64,000 nt of DNA. Origin: Escherichia phage vB_EcoM_IME537. Under the pieces are notes generated by a model. It searched no databases, had not been told where the DNA came from, and saw only the letters and a list, made by a program, of their open reading frames with translations. The position numbers were made by a program, and so were the translations under genes. The stretch lies in sequence record NC_054921.1. The stretch is one strand, 5' to 3'. Every line of letters starts with the position of its first letter. Position 1 is the stretch's first letter. Shown here piece after piece: positions 7,768 through 62,191 of the stretch.

Positions 7768-8288
7768 GTTGATCCCAGCTCCTTACTTTCAACGTTTTTA
7801 ACTAATTTGACAGAAACTAATTCAGCATCTTGAGTAATCATTACTGGGCCTTCTTCATACTCTTCAAGATATTCTAGAGCTTTCTTTTTAGCTTCTTCCT
7901 TCGTATCAGTTTGAGCATAGATATAAAACATACAACCAGTAATACCTACTACTTTCCATTTAATTTCTTTATCAGTTTTAATTTCAAATTTACTGACAGA
8001 ATCATCTTTTTGAACTTCTTCGAAAAAAGAATATTCTAACATATAAGCAATTGAAAATAACGGGCTATCTTTATAGGATTCGCCCATTACATCAATAGCT
8101 TTATACCAGCAGTCATCAATTTCGCGTTTAATGCTAATAACATTCTTTGCAGGGTCAATTTTTACTTTAAATGAATTTTCCCCAATAAACTGGGCAATTC
8201 GTTTATTAGCCCCGCAAGTTTCATTAAAAATATCTTTATACCCAGTTTTAAAGCGATAAACCTTATCTTCTTCAAACCATTCGCTCAT
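7761..8288 (-). CDS. hypothetical protein, 175 aa
   Basis: ORF downstream of early promoter. Confidence 0.55.
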   Translation of the reverse strand: MSEWFEEDKVYRFKTGYKDIFNETCGANKRIAQFIGENSFKVKIDPAKNVISIKREIDDCWYKAIDVMGESYKDSPLFSIAYMLEYSFFEEVQKDDSVSKFEIKTDKEIKWKVVGITGCMFYIYAQTDTKEEAKKKALEYLEEYEEGPVMITQDAELVSVKLVKNVESKELGSTC

Positions 8289-13271: not shown

Positions 13272-14441
13272 TTAAAAATATTTTTTAAAACTCATCATAA
13301 CTTTATCATCAACATCATTATCAATCTGTGCTACAAGGTAAGATGACAGTTCTACTTCTTGCGGCGCGGATTGAACATTATCAGAATTAAGGTATTCACG
13401 AATCCAAGGATACGGATGTTTAACCGGAGCATCGGTAATTGGGCATGGAAGACCGCACTGTTTCATACGAGATACAGTTAAGTAATCAATAAAGCTCCAC
13501 ATGCTATTTGTATTTAATCCAGGAACATCGCCATCTTTAAATAAATGAACTGCCCAGTCTTTTTCTTGGCGGTTAACTTCCATGAAAATATCAACTGCTT
13601 CTTGTTCACACTCTTGAGCAATTTTAACCCATTCATCACCATCAGTGCCAAGTTGAAGTTGACGAATAATATATTGGGTGCCTTTAAGATGAAGCTGCTC
13701 ATCACGCGCAATGAACTTCATAATCTTGGCATTACCTTCCATGATTTCCATGTTCTTATGGAAGTTAAAGGTACATGCGAAAGATACGTAAAAACGAATA
13801 GCTTCCAATGCATTGATTACATGCAAGCAGAGGTAAAGAGATTTCATTAATGCTCGTTTAGTACATTCAACAACTTTGCCTAACTCTTCTTTACGAAATC
13901 CTTCTGATAAAATTCCTTCATAATCTTCAACCGCGTTTTGGTATTCACGAGTCTTAACTAGAACATCATCGTAATAGCGACCAATGGACTCGGCACGTTT
14001 CATAATAGCTTTATCTAATACAATCTCATCAAATACCTTTGATGGGTCAGTATAAAGATTTCGCATGATATGAGTATATGAACGACTGTGAATAGTTTCA
14101 CTAAAAGTCCATGTAGCAACCCATGTATCAAGACTTGGATCTGAAATTAATGACATAAGTACTGCAGACGGTGCACGACCCTGAATGCTATCTAGAAGTG
14201 ATTGATACTTCAGGTTATTAGTAAAAATATCTTGCTGATACTGAGGAAGCTTGTTAAATTGTGCAGCATCCATCATTAAGTTTACTTCTTCAGGACGCCA
14301 GAAAAATGATAAAGATTTCTCTGTAAGTTCTTCAAATACTCGATGCCGTTGAATATCATAACGCGCAATACCAAGACCTGAACCAAAAAACATAGGTTCT
14401 TTTAAAACATCAACTGGATTTGTATTAAAAACTGTAGACAT
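13272..14441 (-). CDS. nrdB: ribonucleotide reductase small subunit, uninterrupted (no intron)
   Basis: from MSTVFNTNPVD; continuous ORF. Confidence 0.93.
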   Translation of the reverse strand: MSTVFNTNPVDVLKEPMFFGSGLGIARYDIQRHRVFEELTEKSLSFFWRPEEVNLMMDAAQFNKLPQYQQDIFTNNLKYQSLLDSIQGRAPSAVLMSLISDPSLDTWVATWTFSETIHSRSYTHIMRNLYTDPSKVFDEIVLDKAIMKRAESIGRYYDDVLVKTREYQNAVEDYEGILSEGFRKEELGKVVECTKRALMKSLYLCLHVINALEAIRFYVSFACTFNFHKNMEIMEGNAKIMKFIARDEQLHLKGTQYIIRQLQLGTDGDEWVKIAQECEQEAVDIFMEVNRQEKDWAVHLFKDGDVPGLNTNSMWSFIDYLTVSRMKQCGLPCPITDAPVKHPYPWIREYLNSDNVQSAPQEVELSSYLVAQIDNDVDDKVMMSFKKYF

Positions 14442-15172
14442 TAATTTTTCCTCTTTAAAATTCTGCCGTGTTTCCAACCTGGCGGTATAATATCATCTTT
14501 ACCTATAAGCGTGCATTCACTTCCATTATTAATCCATTTCTTACCGCGGATTCCTTTATAATCTCTTGGTTTTATTTTGTCAAACTTTGCATCAAGTTGA
14601 TATGACCATCTAAATCCATAAGCATATTGAAATTTACCCTCGGCACAATATTTGATATTTGACCCGTTTCCATTAACTGACCGGGACGCTGCCGCAATAG
14701 AGTGAAAGGTTTCTATGAAATCCCCATCTAATGAGAATTTATGTATTTCTACAGATGGGCACGCATATCTATTCACGTTAGATACATGCTGTTTAGTTTC
14801 GTTTTTATGATGCTTGCCTAGCATCCCTTTAGGATGAGGATTATTTTTCCAATATTTCTTAAAGAACTCAGAATTAGCTTTAGCAAATAATTTTCTGTGT
14901 AAGCTGTACAATCTGTTATTAATTCTATTGCCAGCTTTATCTGTTGCCATTAACGTTAACGCAGAGGCAAGACCAAAATGGCCTTCATTTATCTTACATA
15001 GTAATAGATGAGCTATAAAATGTTCTCTGGCTGTTAATTCAACTAAATTTTCCTTATCATCAGAACCTCCCATACATTTAGGGATTATATGATGTGTCTC
15101 TTTATATTCTAGTAAAGATTCCCGAGCCTGAGCTCGGGAAATTAGGTCGTTATAGATTTTTTGATAATTCAT
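14441..15172 (-). CDS. HNH homing endonuclease (Mob family) between nrdA and nrdB
   Basis: 243 aa; N-terminal HNH core HHIIPKCMGGSDDKENLVELTAREHFIAH; same position as T4 mobE. Confidence 0.8.
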   Translation of the reverse strand: MNYQKIYNDLISRAQARESLLEYKETHHIIPKCMGGSDDKENLVELTAREHFIAHLLLCKINEGHFGLASALTLMATDKAGNRINNRLYSLHRKLFAKANSEFFKKYWKNNPHPKGMLGKHHKNETKQHVSNVNRYACPSVEIHKFSLDGDFIETFHSIAAASRSVNGNGSNIKYCAEGKFQYAYGFRWSYQLDAKFDKIKPRDYKGIRGKKWINNGSECTLIGKDDIIPPGWKHGRILKRKN

Positions 15173-16161
15173 TACAATTTACACGCTGCGCAATCATCGG
15201 CTTTTGGAGTTTCTATTTCATAATCATCAGTACCGGAACCATCACGAGTATTATGATAATAGAAGTTTTTAATGCCATAATACCATCCGTATAGCATGTC
15301 ATCAATCATTACAGACATTGGAACTTTTCCTTTTGGAAAAATCTGCGGGTCATAATATGTATTTGCTGAAGCTGATTGACATACCCATTTCAGCATAATA
15401 GCTACTTGCGTAAGATAAGGTTTATTACCTTTTTTAGCTAATTTCCACGTATAATCATACAGGTCTATGTTATGCTCAATATTGGGCACGACTTGATTAA
15501 AGGAGCCCTCTTTTGATTCTTTAACAGAGACTGGTCCACGTGGAGGCTCGATACCGTTTGTACTGTTAGAAACTTGGGAAGATGACTCACATGGCATAAG
15601 TGCTGATAATGTGCTATTACGGATGCCAAAGAGCTTAAGGTCTTCCCGCAGCGACGACCAGTCACAAACGTATTTTGGAGCTGCGATTTGGTCAATCTTT
15701 TTATTGTACCAGTCGATAGGTAATTCGCCTCGAGACCAACGGGTGTCTGAATAATATTCGCAAGGTCCTTTTTCTTTGGCGAGCTTAATGGATGCTTTAA
15801 TGAGTCCATACTGTAATCTCTCAAATAGTTCATGTGTTAAATCGTTAGCATCTTCATAAGAAGCAAAATTACTTGCCAGCCAAGCTGCATAGTTAGTAAC
15901 ACCTACGCCAAGGTTTCGACGCTTTTTAGCTTTTTCTGCTTCAGGAACTGGATATCCTTGGTAATCCAAAAGATTATCAAGAGCACGAACTTGGACTTCT
16001 GCCAATTCATTAATTTTATCTTGGTCTTGCCAATCGAAGTTATCTAACACAAATGCAGATAACGTGCAGAGGCCCACTTCACCTTTGTTTTCAATAACTT
16101 GTATTGTTGTATACTCATCATCTTCGTAAAATTCATCTACAAATTCATAATCAATATTCAT
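15172..16161 (-). CDS. nrdA: ribonucleotide reductase large subunit, C-terminal fragment
   Basis: 329 aa; ENKGEVGLCTLSAF aligns with E. coli NrdA ENGEIALCTLSAF; C-terminal CAACKL tail; ATG overlaps stop of the inserted HNH ORF. Confidence 0.85.
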   Translation of the reverse strand: MNIDYEFVDEFYEDDEYTTIQVIENKGEVGLCTLSAFVLDNFDWQDQDKINELAEVQVRALDNLLDYQGYPVPEAEKAKKRRNLGVGVTNYAAWLASNFASYEDANDLTHELFERLQYGLIKASIKLAKEKGPCEYYSDTRWSRGELPIDWYNKKIDQIAAPKYVCDWSSLREDLKLFGIRNSTLSALMPCESSSQVSNSTNGIEPPRGPVSVKESKEGSFNQVVPNIEHNIDLYDYTWKLAKKGNKPYLTQVAIMLKWVCQSASANTYYDPQIFPKGKVPMSVMIDDMLYGWYYGIKNFYYHNTRDGSGTDDYEIETPKADDCAACKL

Positions 16162-16861
16162 TTAATTCTTCTACCTTTTTTCGAGATATTCCTAGAGCTT
16201 TAGATGCTCGATGTATTGATTGATATTCTATACCGTTTATTTTTACAGCAATTAAGTTATGGGGTTTTAATCCCTTTGGATGAGGTTTACTGACGTATTC
16301 TTGATTATCGTTTTCAGAGATATTATCAAGCTTTCGACACTTAAAGCCTTTATGTTGAGACCTTTTGCCTTTGCATACGGCCGACATTGCCGAAGCATTG
16401 AGTGAATGTAGTTCGCAAAATTCTCTTAGGCCTTTATGGATTTCTTCATGACCGTCCGGGAAAGTAAATACCCAAGTTGTTTGAAGTTTTTCTCTATGCT
16501 CGTCAGTTACCGGAATACCTTTGTTCCAAGCTGGTTTGCCTTTATTATTTTCAGATACAGAAATAGCCAATTTTCTTCTAAGCCACCCATGGCGTTTATT
16601 GGTGTTCTTTCGTTCAATATTATCTTCAGAATAAACACACATCATATTAGCGGCAAATACCAATTTATGATTATCTGGATATATCTTTACTAATAATTGA
16701 TGAGCTATGTAATGCTCTTCGGGTGTCAAATCTACCAGGTTTTCCTTTGTATCAGAACCACCAATACACAGAGGTATAATATGGTGTGATTCGGTATAGC
16801 AATCTAATTTTCTGTTCTTAGCTTTAGAAATAAGGTTATTGTAAATTTTAGAATAATCCAT
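16151..16861 (-). CDS. HNH homing endonuclease inserted inside nrdA
   Basis: 236 aa; HNH core HHIIPLCIGGSDTKENLVDLTPEEHYIAH; own SD AAGAGGAAAA; C-terminal helix-turn-helix-like region. Confidence 0.85.
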   Translation of the reverse strand: MDYSKIYNNLISKAKNRKLDCYTESHHIIPLCIGGSDTKENLVDLTPEEHYIAHQLLVKIYPDNHKLVFAANMMCVYSEDNIERKNTNKRHGWLRRKLAISVSENNKGKPAWNKGIPVTDEHREKLQTTWVFTFPDGHEEIHKGLREFCELHSLNASAMSAVCKGKRSQHKGFKCRKLDNISENDNQEYVSKPHPKGLKPHNLIAVKINGIEYQSIHRASKALGISRKKVEELNEY

Positions 16862-16906
16862 AACTTTTCCTCTTGTTATGGATTATTTATTAACGGTCTG
16901 TGTACT

Positions 16907-18340
16907 TTATTTGCTTTGAATTATACCGCCAGGATTAGCTTCATAAAACTTAGCTACATCCGACTTCTTAATTTTGATTAAACGGGTTTGTTGGCTATTG
17001 ACATCATTAGTTGGAATAGCAATTTCACAACACAAGTTGCTCTGACGAATAGGTGCCTTTTCGCGAATAAACGGAGTATAGTTATTCGTATTATCAATGA
17101 ACTGCACATAAATCCTTGCTGTTCCTGATCGTTCAGTCATGAGCAATTCAAACAGTTCACGGGCTTTAATACGCTTTTTACGAATATTAGGGTCTTTTTC
17201 TGCGGCTTCATATAATTCACGGAAACGGTCTTGGTCTTTAAAATAAGAATAATAAAGCTCGCCACCCATTTCGTGTGGACTGAACAAAGTAATGTAGTCG
17301 TTCTTTCCGAATCGTTCCATCATTAGGTCATTCAGCTGGACACCATAATCCATATGGCGGATACGGTTTTCTTCTACACCTTTGTTATTTTTCAAAACGA
17401 GAAGATTTTCAACTTCCAAATGCCAAATAGGATAATAAGCAGTAGCAGCACCGCCACGAATTCCGCCCTGTGAACATGATTTAACAGCAGTCTGAAAATG
17501 TTTCCAAAAAGGAATAACACCAGTATGGCGTACTTCACCTGTGCCAATCTTAGAACCTTCGGCACGAATCATACCAACGTTAATGCCGATTCCAGCTCGC
17601 TTGGAGATATATTCAACAATTGAAGCAGAAGCTTTGTTGATAGACTTCAGCGAATCACCTGCCTCAATAACAACGCATGAACTAAACTGTCGAGTTGGAG
17701 TACGACATCCAGCCATAATAGGAGTTGGCAATGAAATCTGTCGAGTGGATACTGCTTCATAAAAACGGATAACGTGTTTTAATCTATCAACAGGTTCATC
17801 TTGATGCAATGCCATTCCAATAGTCATAAACGCAAACTGTGGAGTTTCATAAATTTGACCAGTGGTTTTATCTTTAACGAGATATTTTTCTTTTAATTGC
17901 ATCGCCCCGGAATAAGTAAATTCCATATCCCGCTCATGCTTAATTTTTGATTCTAAAAATGTAATTTCTTCTGCTGAATATTTTGACAGCAGTTCAGGGT
18001 CATATTTACCTTCATTTACACAGTAAGAAATATGGTCAATAAATGAACATGGTTCATATTGCCCGTAAACATGCTTACGAAGAGCAAACATTAAACACCG
18101 TGCAGCTACATATTGATAATCAGGCTCTTCAACTGAAATAGAATTCGCAGCAGCCTTAATGACAATAGTCTGAATGTCATCAGTTGTCATTCCATCACGG
18201 AGATATGATTTAATATTTTCATATAATTCATAAGGATCTACAGATGTTCCTTCAGCTGCCCAAGATAAAACTTTAATAATTTTTTGCGGGTCAAAGCTTT
18301 GAGAAACACCACTACTTTTGATAACATTAATTAATTGCAT
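16907..18340 (-). CDS. nrdA: ribonucleotide reductase large subunit, N-terminal fragment
   Basis: 477 aa; NrdA N-terminus through SNLCCEIAIPTNDVNS, then 28 unrelated residues and TAA. Confidence 0.85.
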   Translation of the reverse strand: MQLINVIKSSGVSQSFDPQKIIKVLSWAAEGTSVDPYELYENIKSYLRDGMTTDDIQTIVIKAAANSISVEEPDYQYVAARCLMFALRKHVYGQYEPCSFIDHISYCVNEGKYDPELLSKYSAEEITFLESKIKHERDMEFTYSGAMQLKEKYLVKDKTTGQIYETPQFAFMTIGMALHQDEPVDRLKHVIRFYEAVSTRQISLPTPIMAGCRTPTRQFSSCVVIEAGDSLKSINKASASIVEYISKRAGIGINVGMIRAEGSKIGTGEVRHTGVIPFWKHFQTAVKSCSQGGIRGGAATAYYPIWHLEVENLLVLKNNKGVEENRIRHMDYGVQLNDLMMERFGKNDYITLFSPHEMGGELYYSYFKDQDRFRELYEAAEKDPNIRKKRIKARELFELLMTERSGTARIYVQFIDNTNNYTPFIREKAPIRQSNLCCEIAIPTNDVNSQQTRLIKIKKSDVAKFYEANPGGIIQSK

Positions 18341-18899: not shown

Positions 18900-19759
18900 T
18901 TACACCGCCATTTTTCCTTTAATAGGAGGGTGTGATTCGTAACCTTTAAGAACGAAATCTTTAGGCCTGAGTTTAAGAACATATTCCAATTGTTCTTTAG
19001 TAGAAAGATAGCGGAATTTATAAGGCAATCCGCCTATTACCAGTTCACAAAGCTCTTTAGGTTCACGACGTAAAATTTCTTTACACTGTTCTATGTGATT
19101 CATATAGATATGAGTATTACCACCAGAAAATATCAAATCTCCTGGAATAAGATTACACATCTTAGCTACAATATGAACTAATGCAGCATATGATGCAATG
19201 TTGAATGGCAAGCCCAAGAACACGTCAACACTTCTTTGATACCACTGCAAATCCAAATAGCCATTACGCACATTAAACTGATAAAACATATGACAAGGTG
19301 GTAATGCCATATGTTTAAGTTCAGCTGGATTCCATGCTGAAACAATTTGACGCCTATCATTCGGCAGTTTTTTAATACGATCAATAACTTCTACAATTTG
19401 GTCTACACCGCCAAAATCACGCCACTGTTTTCCATAAATTGGACCAAGTTCACCACTATGATATCCTAAATCTTTTGCTTGATTTTCGTAATTTTCATCC
19501 CAGACTGTTTTGCCTTGAATTAATGAATCATGCTGAATTAATCGTAAATCATTTACGTTAGTACTTCCTGACAAAAACCATATTAGCTCAGCAATACAAG
19601 CTTTCCAGGCGAGCTTCTTAGTCGTTACTGCAGGAAAACCTTTAGTTAAATCCCAGCGTAATTTAGTACCGAACAAAGCAATTGTTCCTGTGCCTGTTCG
19701 GTCATCGGTTTCATAACCGTTTTCCAGGATATCTTTAATTAAAAATTGGTATTGTTTCA

Positions 19760-19760
<1 letters not shown>
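18900..19760 (-). CDS. td: thymidylate synthase, uninterrupted (no intron)
   Basis: 286 aa from MKQYQ; continuous ORF including the PPCH active-site region. Confidence 0.95.
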
Positions 19761-20792
<1,032 letters not shown>

Positions 20793-20803
20793 ATTATCTC
20801 CTA

Positions 20804-21136
20804 TTAAAAAGGATCAGGAACATATCCACTAGCTTTAATCATTTTAACTAATGTTACCATTCCTTTGTTAACTGCTTGTGAGATTTCATCAAAAACTTCA
20901 TCATTAAAAAGTTCTAGCACACCCTTCTGAACTTTTAATTTACAGCCAACAATTTCGTCATCGCCTATAGTAAATTCATTACCGCCAATTCCACCGAAAA
21001 ACTTAATTACCCCAGTTAACTGTCTTCCACGAGAATATGGGTCATGTGATAAAGTAATATGAGTCACCCCAGGTACAGTTTTAAATTGGCAGCGAATGTT
21101 TACTTGGGAAATTCCAGTTACATGAACGTCAGACAT
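20804..21136 (-). CDS. hypothetical protein, 110 aa
   Basis: ORF with SD. Confidence 0.55.
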   Translation of the reverse strand: MSDVHVTGISQVNIRCQFKTVPGVTHITLSHDPYSRGRQLTGVIKFFGGIGGNEFTIGDDEIVGCKLKVQKGVLELFNDEVFDEISQAVNKGMVTLVKMIKASGYVPDPF

Positions 21137-21146
21137 AATGTTTTCC

Positions 21147-21389
21147 TCAGACAGACTTTTTCACAATTTTCCAATCAGCTTTAAACTGATCAACGTCAGA
21201 ATGATAAATCCAGAATCCTGCGCTTTCTCCATCCTCATAAAGAGGGCATCCATCGCATTCATCTTCCCATCCCATATCACGCAAAAGACGTTCAGCTTTT
21301 TCAACAAGTTCAGAATCTTTACCGATGATATTAAAATACCATTTACCCCTAACTTCTGAATCTTTAATGCTCTGACGTTGTAATCTCAT
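21147..21389 (-). CDS. hypothetical protein, 80 aa
   Basis: ORF with strong SD TAAGGAGAATAAA. Confidence 0.55.
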   Translation of the reverse strand: MRLQRQSIKDSEVRGKWYFNIIGKDSELVEKAERLLRDMGWEDECDGCPLYEDGESAGFWIYHSDVDQFKADWKIVKKSV

Positions 21390-21399
21390 TTTATTCTCC

Positions 21400-21468
21400 T
21401 TAGCAAGCTTTAATCAAAAGGTATAAGCAAACTAACATAACTGCTGCCATAATATAAGGTGCGAACAT
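21400..21468 (-). CDS. candidate 22-aa hydrophobic peptide (MFAPYIMAAVMLVCLYLLIKAC)
   Basis: SD GGAGAAAAGAAA before ATG; stop lies in the SD of the next gene. Confidence 0.35.
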   Translation of the reverse strand: MFAPYIMAAVMLVCLYLLIKAC

Positions 21469-21494
21469 TTTCTTTTCTCCATTAGTTTTGATAG

Positions 21495-21528
21495 GGTAAT
21501 AGTATCACACTACTACCCTTCTGTAAAC
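21495..21528 (-). promoter_or_regulatory. T4-type early promoter
   Basis: minus strand GTTTAC ... GATACTAT. Confidence 0.4.
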
Positions 21529-21929
21529 TACTTTTTGAAAGTTTTTCGCAAAAGTTCAATGATTTCGTCTACATTGTTTTCGTCAACAATGCAGTGAATT
21601 TTTGTTACGCCAGAAACCTTGTCTTTGACTTCATCTTCTTCAGAAGTTGGTTCTTTATACTCGCGGAAACAATAAAACTCTTCTTCACTAAGTTCAAAAT
21701 AATCATCACCCATACCATCATCATTATAGATTTCGCCATTAGCACAAATGATTTCAGTTACATAATCAAAGCCATCTAAACTTGATATTGATTTAACTTC
21801 AAACCAACCACCATTTTCTTGAATGATGCCGACCATATTAGCATTTGATGAACTAATATCAATGAAAGATTTAATACGATGTGGATTTAACTCATATTTT
21901 TTGCCAATTTCCATTTTGATTTTCCTCAT
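21528..21929 (-). CDS. hypothetical acidic protein, 133 aa
   Basis: ORF. Confidence 0.55.
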   Translation of the reverse strand: MRKIKMEIGKKYELNPHRIKSFIDISSSNANMVGIIQENGGWFEVKSISSLDGFDYVTEIICANGEIYNDDGMGDDYFELSEEEFYCFREYKEPTSEEDEVKDKVSGVTKIHCIVDENNVDEIIELLRKTFKK

Positions 21930-21936
21930 TTTGATA

Positions 21937-21952
21937 GGGGCTTGACAGCCCC
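21937..21952 (-). terminator. GGGGCU-loop-AGCCCC hairpin
   Basis: 6-bp stem between ORFs. Confidence 0.4.
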
Positions 21953-21959
21953 TTGATAA

Positions 21960-22190
21960 TTATTGTTCAATCAGTCCCATGTAAAATTCTGCATCTTCAG
22001 CATCCATACCATCACAGTATTCATTAGCCATAAATCGTTCAAGAACTTCTAAAGGACCTTCAATAACAATAGAAAAATTGCAATAATTGGGATCATCATG
22101 AATACTTGTGATACTAAGTTCAGGATAACGATTACGAATAATTTCTTCAATATATTCAAAATCAACGATGTCAATATCAACTTTAGCCAT
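21960..22190 (-). CDS. hypothetical protein, 76 aa (MAKVDIDIV...), own SD, in frame with gene 32 above
   Basis: SD AAAGAGGAAAA before ATG at 22190. Confidence 0.5.
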
Positions 22191-23168
22191 ATTGTTTTCC
22201 TCTTTAATCATCAGCAGTATTGCCGATAGTTGTATAGTACCATAGTCCTTGTTGTATGTAAACCGTTTTGTGAAAAAAAAAAATGGGTCCGTGTCATCAG
22301 CACTAGATGAACTGCCAGAGCTTGAGCTCATAAAATCATCTTCAGTTTTTGTTTTGAAGTCATCAACATTAAATGCATCCAAATCATCAGCAACTTTATC
22401 AGCTTTCTTAGCGGCAGTTGCTGCGGCACCGCCCATAGCAGCAGTTCCCATAACTTGACTGAACTTAGTGCTCAGTTCTTCAAACGATTTGAATTTATCT
22501 TTAGAAGTCATTTCAGAAAGGTCAACCATTTGTTCGAACAGTTCTTTCTGGAAAGATTCATCATCAATGTTTGGAATCGCAGATTGATTCAGGAATTTAG
22601 ATTCGTCGTAGTTACTAAAACCAGAAACTTGTTTAACTTTCAGTACAAAGTTAGCACCTTCCCACGGACAAGTTACATCAACCGGAGTTTCACCCATTTC
22701 AACATCAACTGCAATCATTGCATTGATTTTATCCCAGATTTTCTTACCGAAACGGTATTTAAATACTTTACCTTCATTTTCTGGAGCAGCTGGGTCTTTT
22801 ACAACAAGAATGTTAGCCCAGTAAGAAGTTTTACGTTTAACAAGACCGTACTCTTTATTGTCAGTGTTATACAAATCATTTTTACTGATGTACTGACATA
22901 CTGGGCAAGAATCGTAATCACCGTGGGTAGATGAACAGTTTTCAATATACCATTTACCATTTTTCTTGAAACCGTGATTTACAAGAATTGCGAATGGTGC
23001 TTGTTCATCATTTTTAGACGGAAGAAAACGAATTACTGCTTGACCGTTACCCGCATTGTCGAGTTTCAGTTTCCACTCGCCTTTATCTTCAGAAGAAAAA
23101 CCACCTTTATTTCCAGCCAGTTTAGCCATTTGCGCAGCGAGTTCAGCAGTAGATTTACGTTTAAACAT
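21960..23168 (-). CDS. 32: ssDNA-binding protein gp32; frame stays open past the expected C-terminus to 21960
   Basis: residues 1..about 293 match T4 gp32 as recalled (to ...SSSSADDTD); then PFFFF from an 11-nt homopolymer at 22273..22283 and no stop. Confidence 0.85.
22225..22262 (-). promoter_or_regulatory. T4-type early promoter lying inside the gene 32 readthrough
   Basis: minus strand GTTTACATACAACAAGGACTATGGTACTATACAACT. Confidence 0.5.
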
Positions 23169-23267
23169 TTTTATTTCCTTTTTAATTTAATTAACAGTTG
23201 GTGCTATGACGATGTATGACCTCATAGCTGGTCAGTGAGATAATTATAATCTATTTATAATAAGCAA
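23169..23267 (-). promoter_or_regulatory. gene 32 leader: AU-rich translational operator with pseudoknot region, plus late promoter TATAAATA (23252..23259)
   Basis: minus strand UUAAAUUAAAAAGGAAAUAAAA before AUG; TATAAATAG box. Confidence 0.6.
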
Positions 23268-23921
23268 TTAGTACTTGCAAGATTTCACAGTTTCAATAAA
23301 AACACTTTTAGCTTTCTGTGAATCAATATTTAAAATTTTTCTATAAGCCTTTAACTTTATAGAATAATTATTCCAGACTAAATTATCAGTCTGTTCATCA
23401 TGTTTATCGATTATATTTAAAAACGAATCAAGCAAGATAAACGTCTCAAACGAAATTATATTCGATTGAAGTAGTTTAAAAATATAACTTGATTGAACTT
23501 TTGGATTATATTCAAAAATTTCTTTAAAAGCAGAAACTTCAACTTTTTTACTAAAATAATAAATGTTGCGAATATCTTCTTCAAACTTAAATTTAATTTG
23601 CTTTAAGCGTCCGATATATTCACGATAAAACACAAGTGCATCAGCGTCAGAGATGTCACCAATCCAAGCATCTTGGTTAGCAACAAGATTGCTTATAAAG
23701 ATTAAAGCAAGTTCCTTTAATTTATATTTTTCTGATAACTTCTGGAAAAAATACTTATCCCTTCGCTTTTGATAAGCGGCATCAGACACCCGCATGCACC
23801 AATTATACTTAATTACATCATACTTTCCATTCATATGTTGTTTTATCATTAAGTATAATTTATAAACTGATTTACCATCAATGTATCTTTCACCACCAGC
23901 AGGCATGCGGAGTTTAATCAT
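23268..23921 (-). CDS. 59: helicase loader gp59
   Basis: 217 aa; size and position as T4. Confidence 0.9.
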   Translation of the reverse strand: MIKLRMPAGGERYIDGKSVYKLYLMIKQHMNGKYDVIKYNWCMRVSDAAYQKRRDKYFFQKLSEKYKLKELALIFISNLVANQDAWIGDISDADALVFYREYIGRLKQIKFKFEEDIRNIYYFSKKVEVSAFKEIFEYNPKVQSSYIFKLLQSNIISFETFILLDSFLNIIDKHDEQTDNLVWNNYSIKLKAYRKILNIDSQKAKSVFIETVKSCKY

Positions 23922-60051: not shown

Positions 60052-60702
60052 TTATTTTTCCTTTCTTATGAAGTTTTCTATCATATGTCTATAGCAGATA
60101 TTAGGATAACCTGCCTTGACAGCTATTTTATTAAATTTTGTGCGCTTAGGTCTATTATTATAAACCCATAATTCATAAAGCGCATCATAACTATTCCATA
60201 TTTCTCCTCGCCTAGGATTTGGTAAACCATATCGAGGTGAATTTTTACCGCTAAATCTTCCTTTTCGGGCTTTACTCATATTAGCCTTGGCTTCATCGGA
60301 TATAATTTTACCTTTATGAGCTAGACGCATTTTGGCTTTAGTTTCTTCTGGGGTCTTTTTGCCTTTAATCCATGACGGCTTGCCATATCTAGGATTATTT
60401 TCACCCGAGAAAAGAACAGAGTTTTGGATTTTAAGGGTTTCTATTAATCTACTTGTTAATTTAACACCTTTATTATATCGCATTAAATTTACAGCATAAT
60501 GCAATCCTCTCACATCTGGATATATTTTAGTTAATAATCTATGAGCTATAAAATGCTCACGAGCAGTTAACTCAACAAGATTGTTTTTGTCATCTGCTCC
60601 TCCCATACATCTAGGAATTATATGATGGCGTTCTTTATATCCGCCAAGATGCCGGCATTTAGCTTTTGTAATTAAAGCCGAGTAAATTTTTTGGTAATTC
60701 AC
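60052..60702 (-). CDS. HNH homing endonuclease (Mob family) between 56 and dam
   Basis: 216 aa; HNH core HHIIPRCMGGADDKNNLVELTAREHFIAH; N-terminus nearly identical to ORF 14441..15172. Confidence 0.8.
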   Translation of the reverse strand: MNYQKIYSALITKAKCRHLGGYKERHHIIPRCMGGADDKNNLVELTAREHFIAHRLLTKIYPDVRGLHYAVNLMRYNKGVKLTSRLIETLKIQNSVLFSGENNPRYGKPSWIKGKKTPEETKAKMRLAHKGKIISDEAKANMSKARKGRFSGKNSPRYGLPNPRRGEIWNSYDALYELWVYNNRPKRTKFNKIAVKAGYPNICYRHMIENFIRKEK

Positions 60703-60761
60703 ATATATCCTTTCAATTCATTAATAAGTTAAATAATTATATCATTTGAGTGTGTAAGCAA

Positions 60762-62101
<1,340 letters not shown>

Positions 62102-62121
62102 TATATCATCCTCAGCAATTT

Positions 62122-62156
62122 ATTTTATAATACCATAACAAGCTGAGAAAGTAAAC
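62122..62156 (-). promoter_or_regulatory. T4-type early promoter upstream of ORF 61541..62101
   Basis: minus strand GTTTAC ... TATTAT then SD GAGGATGA. Confidence 0.45.
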
Positions 62157-62191
62157 AAATTTATGATAAATATTAATTTAAAGGAGGACAT

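Follow-up and report, generated by a model that had tools for sequence, protein, structure and literature searches.

We have discovered that gene 32 of a T4-like phage reads in frame into its downstream neighbor, frd.3, within the window, the whole 64,000-nucleotide stretch of DNA that was analyzed here. The last codons of gp32, its stop codon and the terminator behind it are missing, and the protein continues through a short linker into a complete Frd.3. The reading that we favor, and consider probable, is a genuine gp32-Frd.3 fusion that was generated by deletion and is tolerated by the phage. Among phage SSBs gp32 is the textbook example, and proteins of replication, recombination and repair are recruited through its acidic C-terminus, which serves as their hub. 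On the reading that we favor, a deletion has fused this well-known protein to its neighbor, and GenBank contains a single precedent, which has gone unremarked.

The fused frame and its parts

The fused ORF (402 aa plus stop) occupies 21960..23168 on the minus strand in the ORF list and comprises gp32 residues 1-294, a 32-aa linker and Frd.3 residues 1-76, with a predicted mass of ~45.3 kDa as computed from the sequence. A preliminary description of this DNA held that the gp32 frame is T4-like up to ...SSSSADDTD and then lacks the expected tail and stop, and that a 402-aa ORF runs from there into the next gene. The ORF listing confirms the former, and the latter is the ORF given above.

The gp32 part (residues 1-294, without the terminal LDDLLNDL) was placed by protein alignment at 22287..23168 on the minus strand and shares 99% identity with the 302-aa gp32 that is common in Tequatrovirus, in an alignment covering 73% of the query. 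A correction of the numbering applies, in that gp32 here is the 302-aa form and the lost residues 295-302 are residues 294-301 of T4. The N-terminal cooperativity motif KRKST (within MFKRKST) is present, as are the Zn ligands H65, C78, C88 and C91, which occupy nearly invariant columns among the homologues; the roles of this motif and of the Zn ligands in gp32 have been described (PMC12893549). The acidic C-domain is retained up to residue 294, with the Dda-binding helix included; Dda contacts T4 gp32 at residues 248-270 (PMC11551737).

The 32-aa linker is translated out of former intergenic DNA at 22191..22286 on the minus strand, and the DNA that encodes it is made up of a remnant T-run, an early promoter and the Shine-Dalgarno sequence of frd.3. 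The run is an 11-nt homopolymer read directly at 22273..22283 (T11, or A11 on the plus strand), exactly as the preliminary description had it. That description had also seen the frame cross an early promoter, and a promoter-like TTTACA-17-TACTAT with a TG upstream is indeed found at 22234..22262 on the minus strand, now within the coding frame. It was recognized by its match to the consensus, and a promoter is annotated at the homologous place in phage Lutter. The Shine-Dalgarno sequence, GAGG, stands at 22199..22202 on the minus strand, 8 nt upstream of the ATG at 22190, and is kept in every aligned relative. From this ATG the frd.3 frame (76 aa plus stop, 21960..22190, minus strand) is intact and encodes MAKVDIDIV...GLIEQ, which the fused frame reads through in full; the downstream 76-aa gene with its own Shine-Dalgarno sequence is therefore present as had been described. 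The frd.3 frame of normal phages has no stop for ~29 codons 5′ of its ATG, and some annotations start 7-23 codons early. A 133-aa Frd2-like protein is encoded nearby in the window at 21528..21929.

Both domains were recognized in the fusion by Pfam. The gp32 profile (PF08804) matched residues 40-240 with an E-value of 3.9e-66 and 223.5 bits (cut-off 26.8), and Phage_FRD3 (PF05798) matched residues 327-402 with an E-value of 1.8e-36, covering profile positions 1-75 of 75; Frd.3 by itself matched the latter profile with an E-value of 1.1e-37. Frd.3 is strongly acidic, with 19 Asp and Glu against 4 Lys and Arg and a pI of ~4, and its AlphaFold model has a ferredoxin-like alpha/beta fold at a pLDDT of 93. 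Its ~30 protein clusters all belong to T4-like phages, and it shares 64-97% identity with 30 homologues. When the whole fusion was modeled with AlphaFold, the gp32 core and the Frd.3 domain were folded and the connector was disordered, with pLDDT values below 50 across residues 274-316. In the predicted product, a disordered linker would thus join the core and acidic domain of gp32 to a folded Frd.3 domain that is very acidic.

Translation of gene 32 would cross T11, the early promoter and the Shine-Dalgarno sequence of frd.3 before continuing through frd.3 in frame. No terminator-like sites were found in 21300..23400 of the window, and with the terminator gone gene 32 transcripts would be expected to extend into frd.3, frd.2 and beyond. 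Frd.3 alone could presumably still be produced from its own retained promoter and Shine-Dalgarno sequence.

The missing DNA and the junction

The window phage is a Tequatrovirus (T4-like) whose best relatives are 94-97% identical over 22 kb. Compared with these phages, the window is without a net 75 bp that is carried by all 12 related loci read base by base; base-level alignments were made with KAW1E185, Lutter, PD112, HY01, teqhad, slur07 and KIT06. When a 601-bp query was used, each of the 40 matches listed, of 512, was split in two and spanned ~671-676 bp (748 bp in one case). Two conserved anchors, GATGAYACNGAY and TGGTACTATACAAC, are separated by 118-123 nt in 12 normal loci; in the window the distance shrinks to 44 nt, and in phiC600P9, a phage that is treated below, to 14 nt. 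The lost DNA consists of the last 8 codons of gene 32 (LDDLLNDL), the TAA stop, a 22-nt spacer, an intrinsic terminator hairpin (GGGGACC-CTAGA-GGTCCCC) and a 10-nt A/T block, ATTTCAAAAA. The DNA coding for the tail, CTGGATGACCTTTTGAATGACCTTTAA, was found nowhere in the whole window with 3 mismatches allowed. A real deletion making a fusion, one of the explanations offered in the preliminary description, fits these observations, as the tail codons, stop and terminator are absent relative to all of the relatives examined.

The terminator-hairpin loop itself occurs in two orientations among the relatives, GGGGACC-CTAGA-GGTCCCC and GGGGACC-TCTAG-GGTCCCC, with 2 loci set apart from 11 others. The two loops are mutual reverse complements, as though the hairpin had been flipped.

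The deletion scar, defined by the alignments to relatives and by the anchor distance, reads GAC-CCA-T11 on the minus strand and lies at 22273..22289. T11 stands alone in the 64 kb, where no other A/T run, and indeed no other homopolymer, is longer than 7, and scans of the PD112 and phiC600P9 loci detected no run of 8 or more. The corresponding runs in the relatives are T5-T9 and are interrupted by ATTTCAAAAA; no relative has T11. The tract fits an ancestral T6 joined to an ancestral T5, and on these alignments would be a scar rather than an evolved element.

One simple deletion was ruled out for the window junction, since no relative gives it in one step. The shortest route that we could construct would start from a PD112-type ancestor and involve three steps. 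A 65-bp deletion at a CC microhomology (GGA[CCTGG...GAGGT]CCCC) may have come first, followed by loss of the 10 bp ATTTCAAAAA, which would bring together the T6 and T5 runs on either side of it as T11. A single C>A substitution, converting CCC to CCA, would complete the junction and would leave proline in the fused frame either way. The deletion, the frame, the domains and the parallel case described below can be read from the sequences; we infer that the phage DNA itself, and not just the assembled sequence, carries the deletion, that a phage with this deletion is viable, and that the events took this order.

Three other origins of the junction were considered and rejected. A deletion between two direct repeats of GGACC, one copy in gene 32 and the other within the terminator's 5′ arm, predicts ACGGACC-CTAGAGG..., which was not observed. 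A large alternative hairpin that would pair the breakpoints was not recovered, as DNA folding of the ancestral region gave the terminator hairpin only. Damage by the SegG homing endonuclease does not suit the position of the lesion; its cut site, which we take to be near the 5′ third of gene 32 and not at the 3′ end, is away from the junction, and segG is absent from the window. The segG gene lies in the interval from gene 59 to gene 32, the latter being its target (PMC2988022). At that place the window (23169..23267) has no segG, and HY01 has one. A Logan contig contains an unannotated 210-aa segG-like ORF between genes 59 and 32 together with a normal 301-aa gp32, and the same contig encodes a 133-aa Frd2 identical to that of the window.

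The junction appears to be unique among the sequences searched. With exact and gapped patterns, the exact junction had no match in viral, metagenome and genome contig collections or in E. coli genomes, a weak negative in that the collections hold few normal copies (3 in the viral contigs). The 402-aa protein has no record either.

Elsewhere in the window, identity to PD112 is 97-99% across most of the 64 kb, with ~30 small indels. Segments without a PD112 counterpart by blastn are found at 7768..8285, 14449..15175, 16082..16996, 20798..21133, 60066..60707 and 61629..62164, and represent mosaic insertions or replacements at nrdB/nrdA, in the frd.1-frd.2 region and near gene 61. The segment at 13777..14448 is just 85% identical to PD112, with clustered indels. 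An Rfam scan of the 64 kb gave no family at gathering score. Thymidylate synthase is encoded by an unbroken ORF (18900..19760, 286 aa), and the phage therefore appears to be without the td group I intron of T4. Just one similar copy of the early promoter was found elsewhere in the window. At ~38867 a 38-bp segment of PD112, TTGTAAACCGTTTTGTGAAAAAATTTTAAAATAAAAAA, is missing; its minus strand is a further copy, TTTTTTCACAAAACGGTTTACAA, of the early-promoter/UP motif that stands beside gene 32, and thus a second promoter cassette varies by presence or absence.

Tip conservation, a parallel fusion and competing explanations

The acidic C-domain of the gp32 family ends in the tip [DE]-L-D-D-L-L-x-[GD]-L, which the window protein lacks. 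Among the 121 best gp32 homologues, 115 carry this tip with 0-3 extra residues after it, and it is conserved down to ~60% identity while the Ser/Asp-rich linker before it is freely variable. Conservation of the tip beside a variable linker indicates strong selection, which makes a viable tip-less phage surprising, and in these alignments the tip behaves like a selected short linear motif. The six homologues without it are two synthetic constructs, one partial sequence, one truncated on a short contig, and the two records of phiC600P9; nonsense or frameshift variants missing only the tip were not found among the 121. Two 'metaclust' database entries are artificial-looking concatemers of gp32 fragments, one of them His6-tagged, and are not natural long gp32 variants.

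Enterobacteria phage phiC600P9 was the only other case of a gp32-Frd.3 fusion among 5.8 billion protein clusters. This phage (GenBank MZ681930.1 and MT630408.1) comes from China, where E. coli C600 served as the isolation host, and its 392-aa fusion (QYW08368.1 and QNI20321.1) is annotated merely as SSB. As in the window, the protein contains PF08804 and PF05798, the tip, stop and terminator have been deleted, and frd.3 is in frame. Relative to KIT06, its nearest relative at 98.4% identity, phiC600P9 has lost 106 bp in one clean deletion, which reaches from GGACCT into the spacer of the promoter and takes with it the tail and stop, the terminator, the UP region and the -35 box. It therefore differs from the window in having one clean deletion, in the loss of the -35 and in the lack of a homopolymer; it also keeps Leu295 (...ADDTDL) and has a linker of 22 aa against 32 aa in the window. 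The two phages are ~94% identical across the gene 32/frd.3 region, and this limited identity together with the different deletions indicates two independent events. The left breakpoint in phiC600P9 is 1 nt from that of the window, whereas the right end, in the promoter spacer, is different. The shared left end could reflect a mutational hot spot or selection for removing exactly the tip. Pattern scans of the same contig collections and E. coli genomes detected no further copies of the phiC600P9 junction (again a weak negative), a literature search found no papers mentioning phiC600P9, and the gp32 and frd.3 literature searched contained no reports of a gp32-Frd.3 fusion.

The fusion might instead be a local artifact of assembly or consensus calling, the phage itself having a normal tail and terminator and the 75 bp having been lost in sequencing or assembly; we regard this as rather unlikely. 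Poor reads through a GC hairpin and the A/T homopolymers of hydroxymethyl-C-modified DNA are a possible cause, and the junction does lie at a GC hairpin beside low-complexity A/T DNA, where consensus calling can fail. It is also complex, with two deletions, a substitution and an 11-nt homopolymer otherwise absent from the 64 kb, it removes a near-universally conserved motif from an essential protein, and the failure to find it in any other public sequence points weakly in the same direction. The alignments, however, reveal no k-mer common to both sides of the junction by which a de Bruijn assembler could have skipped across, and in phiC600P9 an independent clean deletion, found in both of its records, leads to the same outcome. 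Nor are there other signs of error in the window, where homopolymers elsewhere agree with PD112. Indels relative to PD112 whose length is not a multiple of 3 all fall outside ORFs of at least 60 aa, at the edge of an ORF or alignment, or in one doubtful 62-aa ORF, and thus avoid genes; frameshifting indels scattered in other genes, the mark of an error-prone assembly, were not found. Such a pattern would be expected from an accurate sequence shaped by selection and not from a noisy consensus. A miscalled homopolymer, which the preliminary description had entertained, was refuted as the cause of the missing tail. In simulations of T8-T14, the lengths T8, T11 and T14 gave the fusion and the other lengths gave a 318-321-aa gp32 with an unrelated tail, so that the length of the run decides whether the frame reaches frd.3; as none of them restores LDDLLNDL, a miscall cannot account for the lost C-terminus, and the earlier statement that no alternative frame restores the tail holds. 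The same simulations bear on the proposal that T11 is a programmed slippage or -1 frameshift site that sets the ratio of short gp32 (318-321 aa) to fusion, which we consider highly improbable. A/T runs of 9 or more provoke RNA polymerase slippage in E. coli, and U UUU UUC is a slippery heptamer. T11 places a slippery homopolymer of at least 9 nt in the coding frame (codons 296-299), and one T more or less in the run gives a product of 321 or 318 aa. The tract is absent from all relatives, however, and lacks the conservation of a recoding element; it is accounted for as a deletion scar, the alternative frames contribute 24-27 residues of unconserved tail without the tip, no stimulatory structure was found downstream, and phiC600P9 has the same fusion without the homopolymer. 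The description of T11 as a slippage-prone tract is therefore fair in physical terms, and minority slippage products of 318-321 aa are likely, but its reading as a programmed site did not stand, given a unique tract and alternative frames that encode junk.

A further question is whether a genuine fusion was selected and not just tolerated, with Frd.3 partly replacing the recruiting tip, or with loss or masking of the tip evading an SSB-responsive host system. We think this doubtful. To our knowledge, no defense system reads the gp32 tip. The two gp32 genes known to lack the tip are both fused in frame to Frd.3, and tip-only nonsense or frameshift variants, which are absent from the 121 homologues, would be expected far oftener than in-frame deletions of 75-106 bp; two in-frame outcomes would nevertheless arise by chance with a probability of ~1/9, which is suggestive and not significant. 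The left breakpoints, 1 nt apart and immediately before the tip, could instead stem from a mutational hot spot beside GGACC. The C-terminus of Frd.3 is loosely tip-like (acidic, two hydrophobics, x, Gly, Leu), and only 2 of 138 window ORFs, Frd.3 included, match this loose pattern, which was set post hoc. The resemblance is partial, as the conserved first Leu of the tip is opposite Asp and the invariant Leu is opposite Tyr, and AlphaFold places the C-terminal helix of Frd.3 in the confidently folded domain and not in a free tail. Phage SSBs have been reported as common determinants of defense sensitivity, and the SSBs tested on DARNA included T4 gp32 (bioRxiv 10.64898/2026.02.22.705581). It is conceivable, at a low probability, that tip loss is viable only, or best, as a Frd.3 fusion, and that Frd.3 acts as a mimic, competitor or substitute in the interaction network of the gp32 tail; substitution of Frd.3 for the tip is in particular speculative. 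Were it true, two phages would have independently made a neighboring regulator into a C-terminal SSB module, possibly under pressure from an SSB-responsive host.

The fusion by deletion that we favor has consequences of its own. If the deletion is real, two natural isolates would demonstrate that the most conserved part of the gp32 tail is dispensable as long as Frd.3 extends the protein, which would provide the first functional lead for the orphan Frd.3 family as well as a natural allele that separates the function of the tip from that of the Dda-binding helix (residues 248-270). Were the junction an artifact, the record would need correction, since automatic annotation would call the 402-aa product an 'SSB', as happened with phiC600P9.

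Comparison with known systems

Relative to T4 gp32 (301-302 aa), the window protein shares residues 1-294, the KRKST motif, the Zn ligands, the core and the acidic domain. It differs in that the tip LDDLLNDL, the stop codon and the terminator are missing and in that it has gained a 108-aa extension, consisting of the 32-aa linker and Frd.3.

The C-terminus of E. coli SSB (...DDDIPF) and the C-terminal Phe of T7 gp2.5 are acidic tips that recruit partners. By analogy, the gp32 tip would be comparable to these, being a conserved extreme C-terminus that follows a variable, disordered acidic linker. In the window, by contrast, the motif has been deleted and a folded domain stands in its place, while the Dda site is further upstream, at residues 248-270.

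PeSL cassettes, which combine a terminator stem-loop with an early promoter, mediate indels in T4-like genomes (PMC2839356, PMC4122927). The gene 32/frd.3 boundary of the relatives is PeSL-like, with a GC stem-loop and a T-run followed by an early promoter, and the rearrangement sits there. In the window itself, a GC stem-loop with a T-tail just 5′ of the promoter is no longer found, and only the promoter half remains at 22262..22234. PeSL shuffling exchanges whole ORFs by recombination between cassettes, whereas in the window the stem-loop half of the cassette and part of a core gene would have been deleted by micro- or non-homologous joining. The window may thus offer an example in which deletion within a terminator-promoter cassette yields a new multidomain protein from a core gene.
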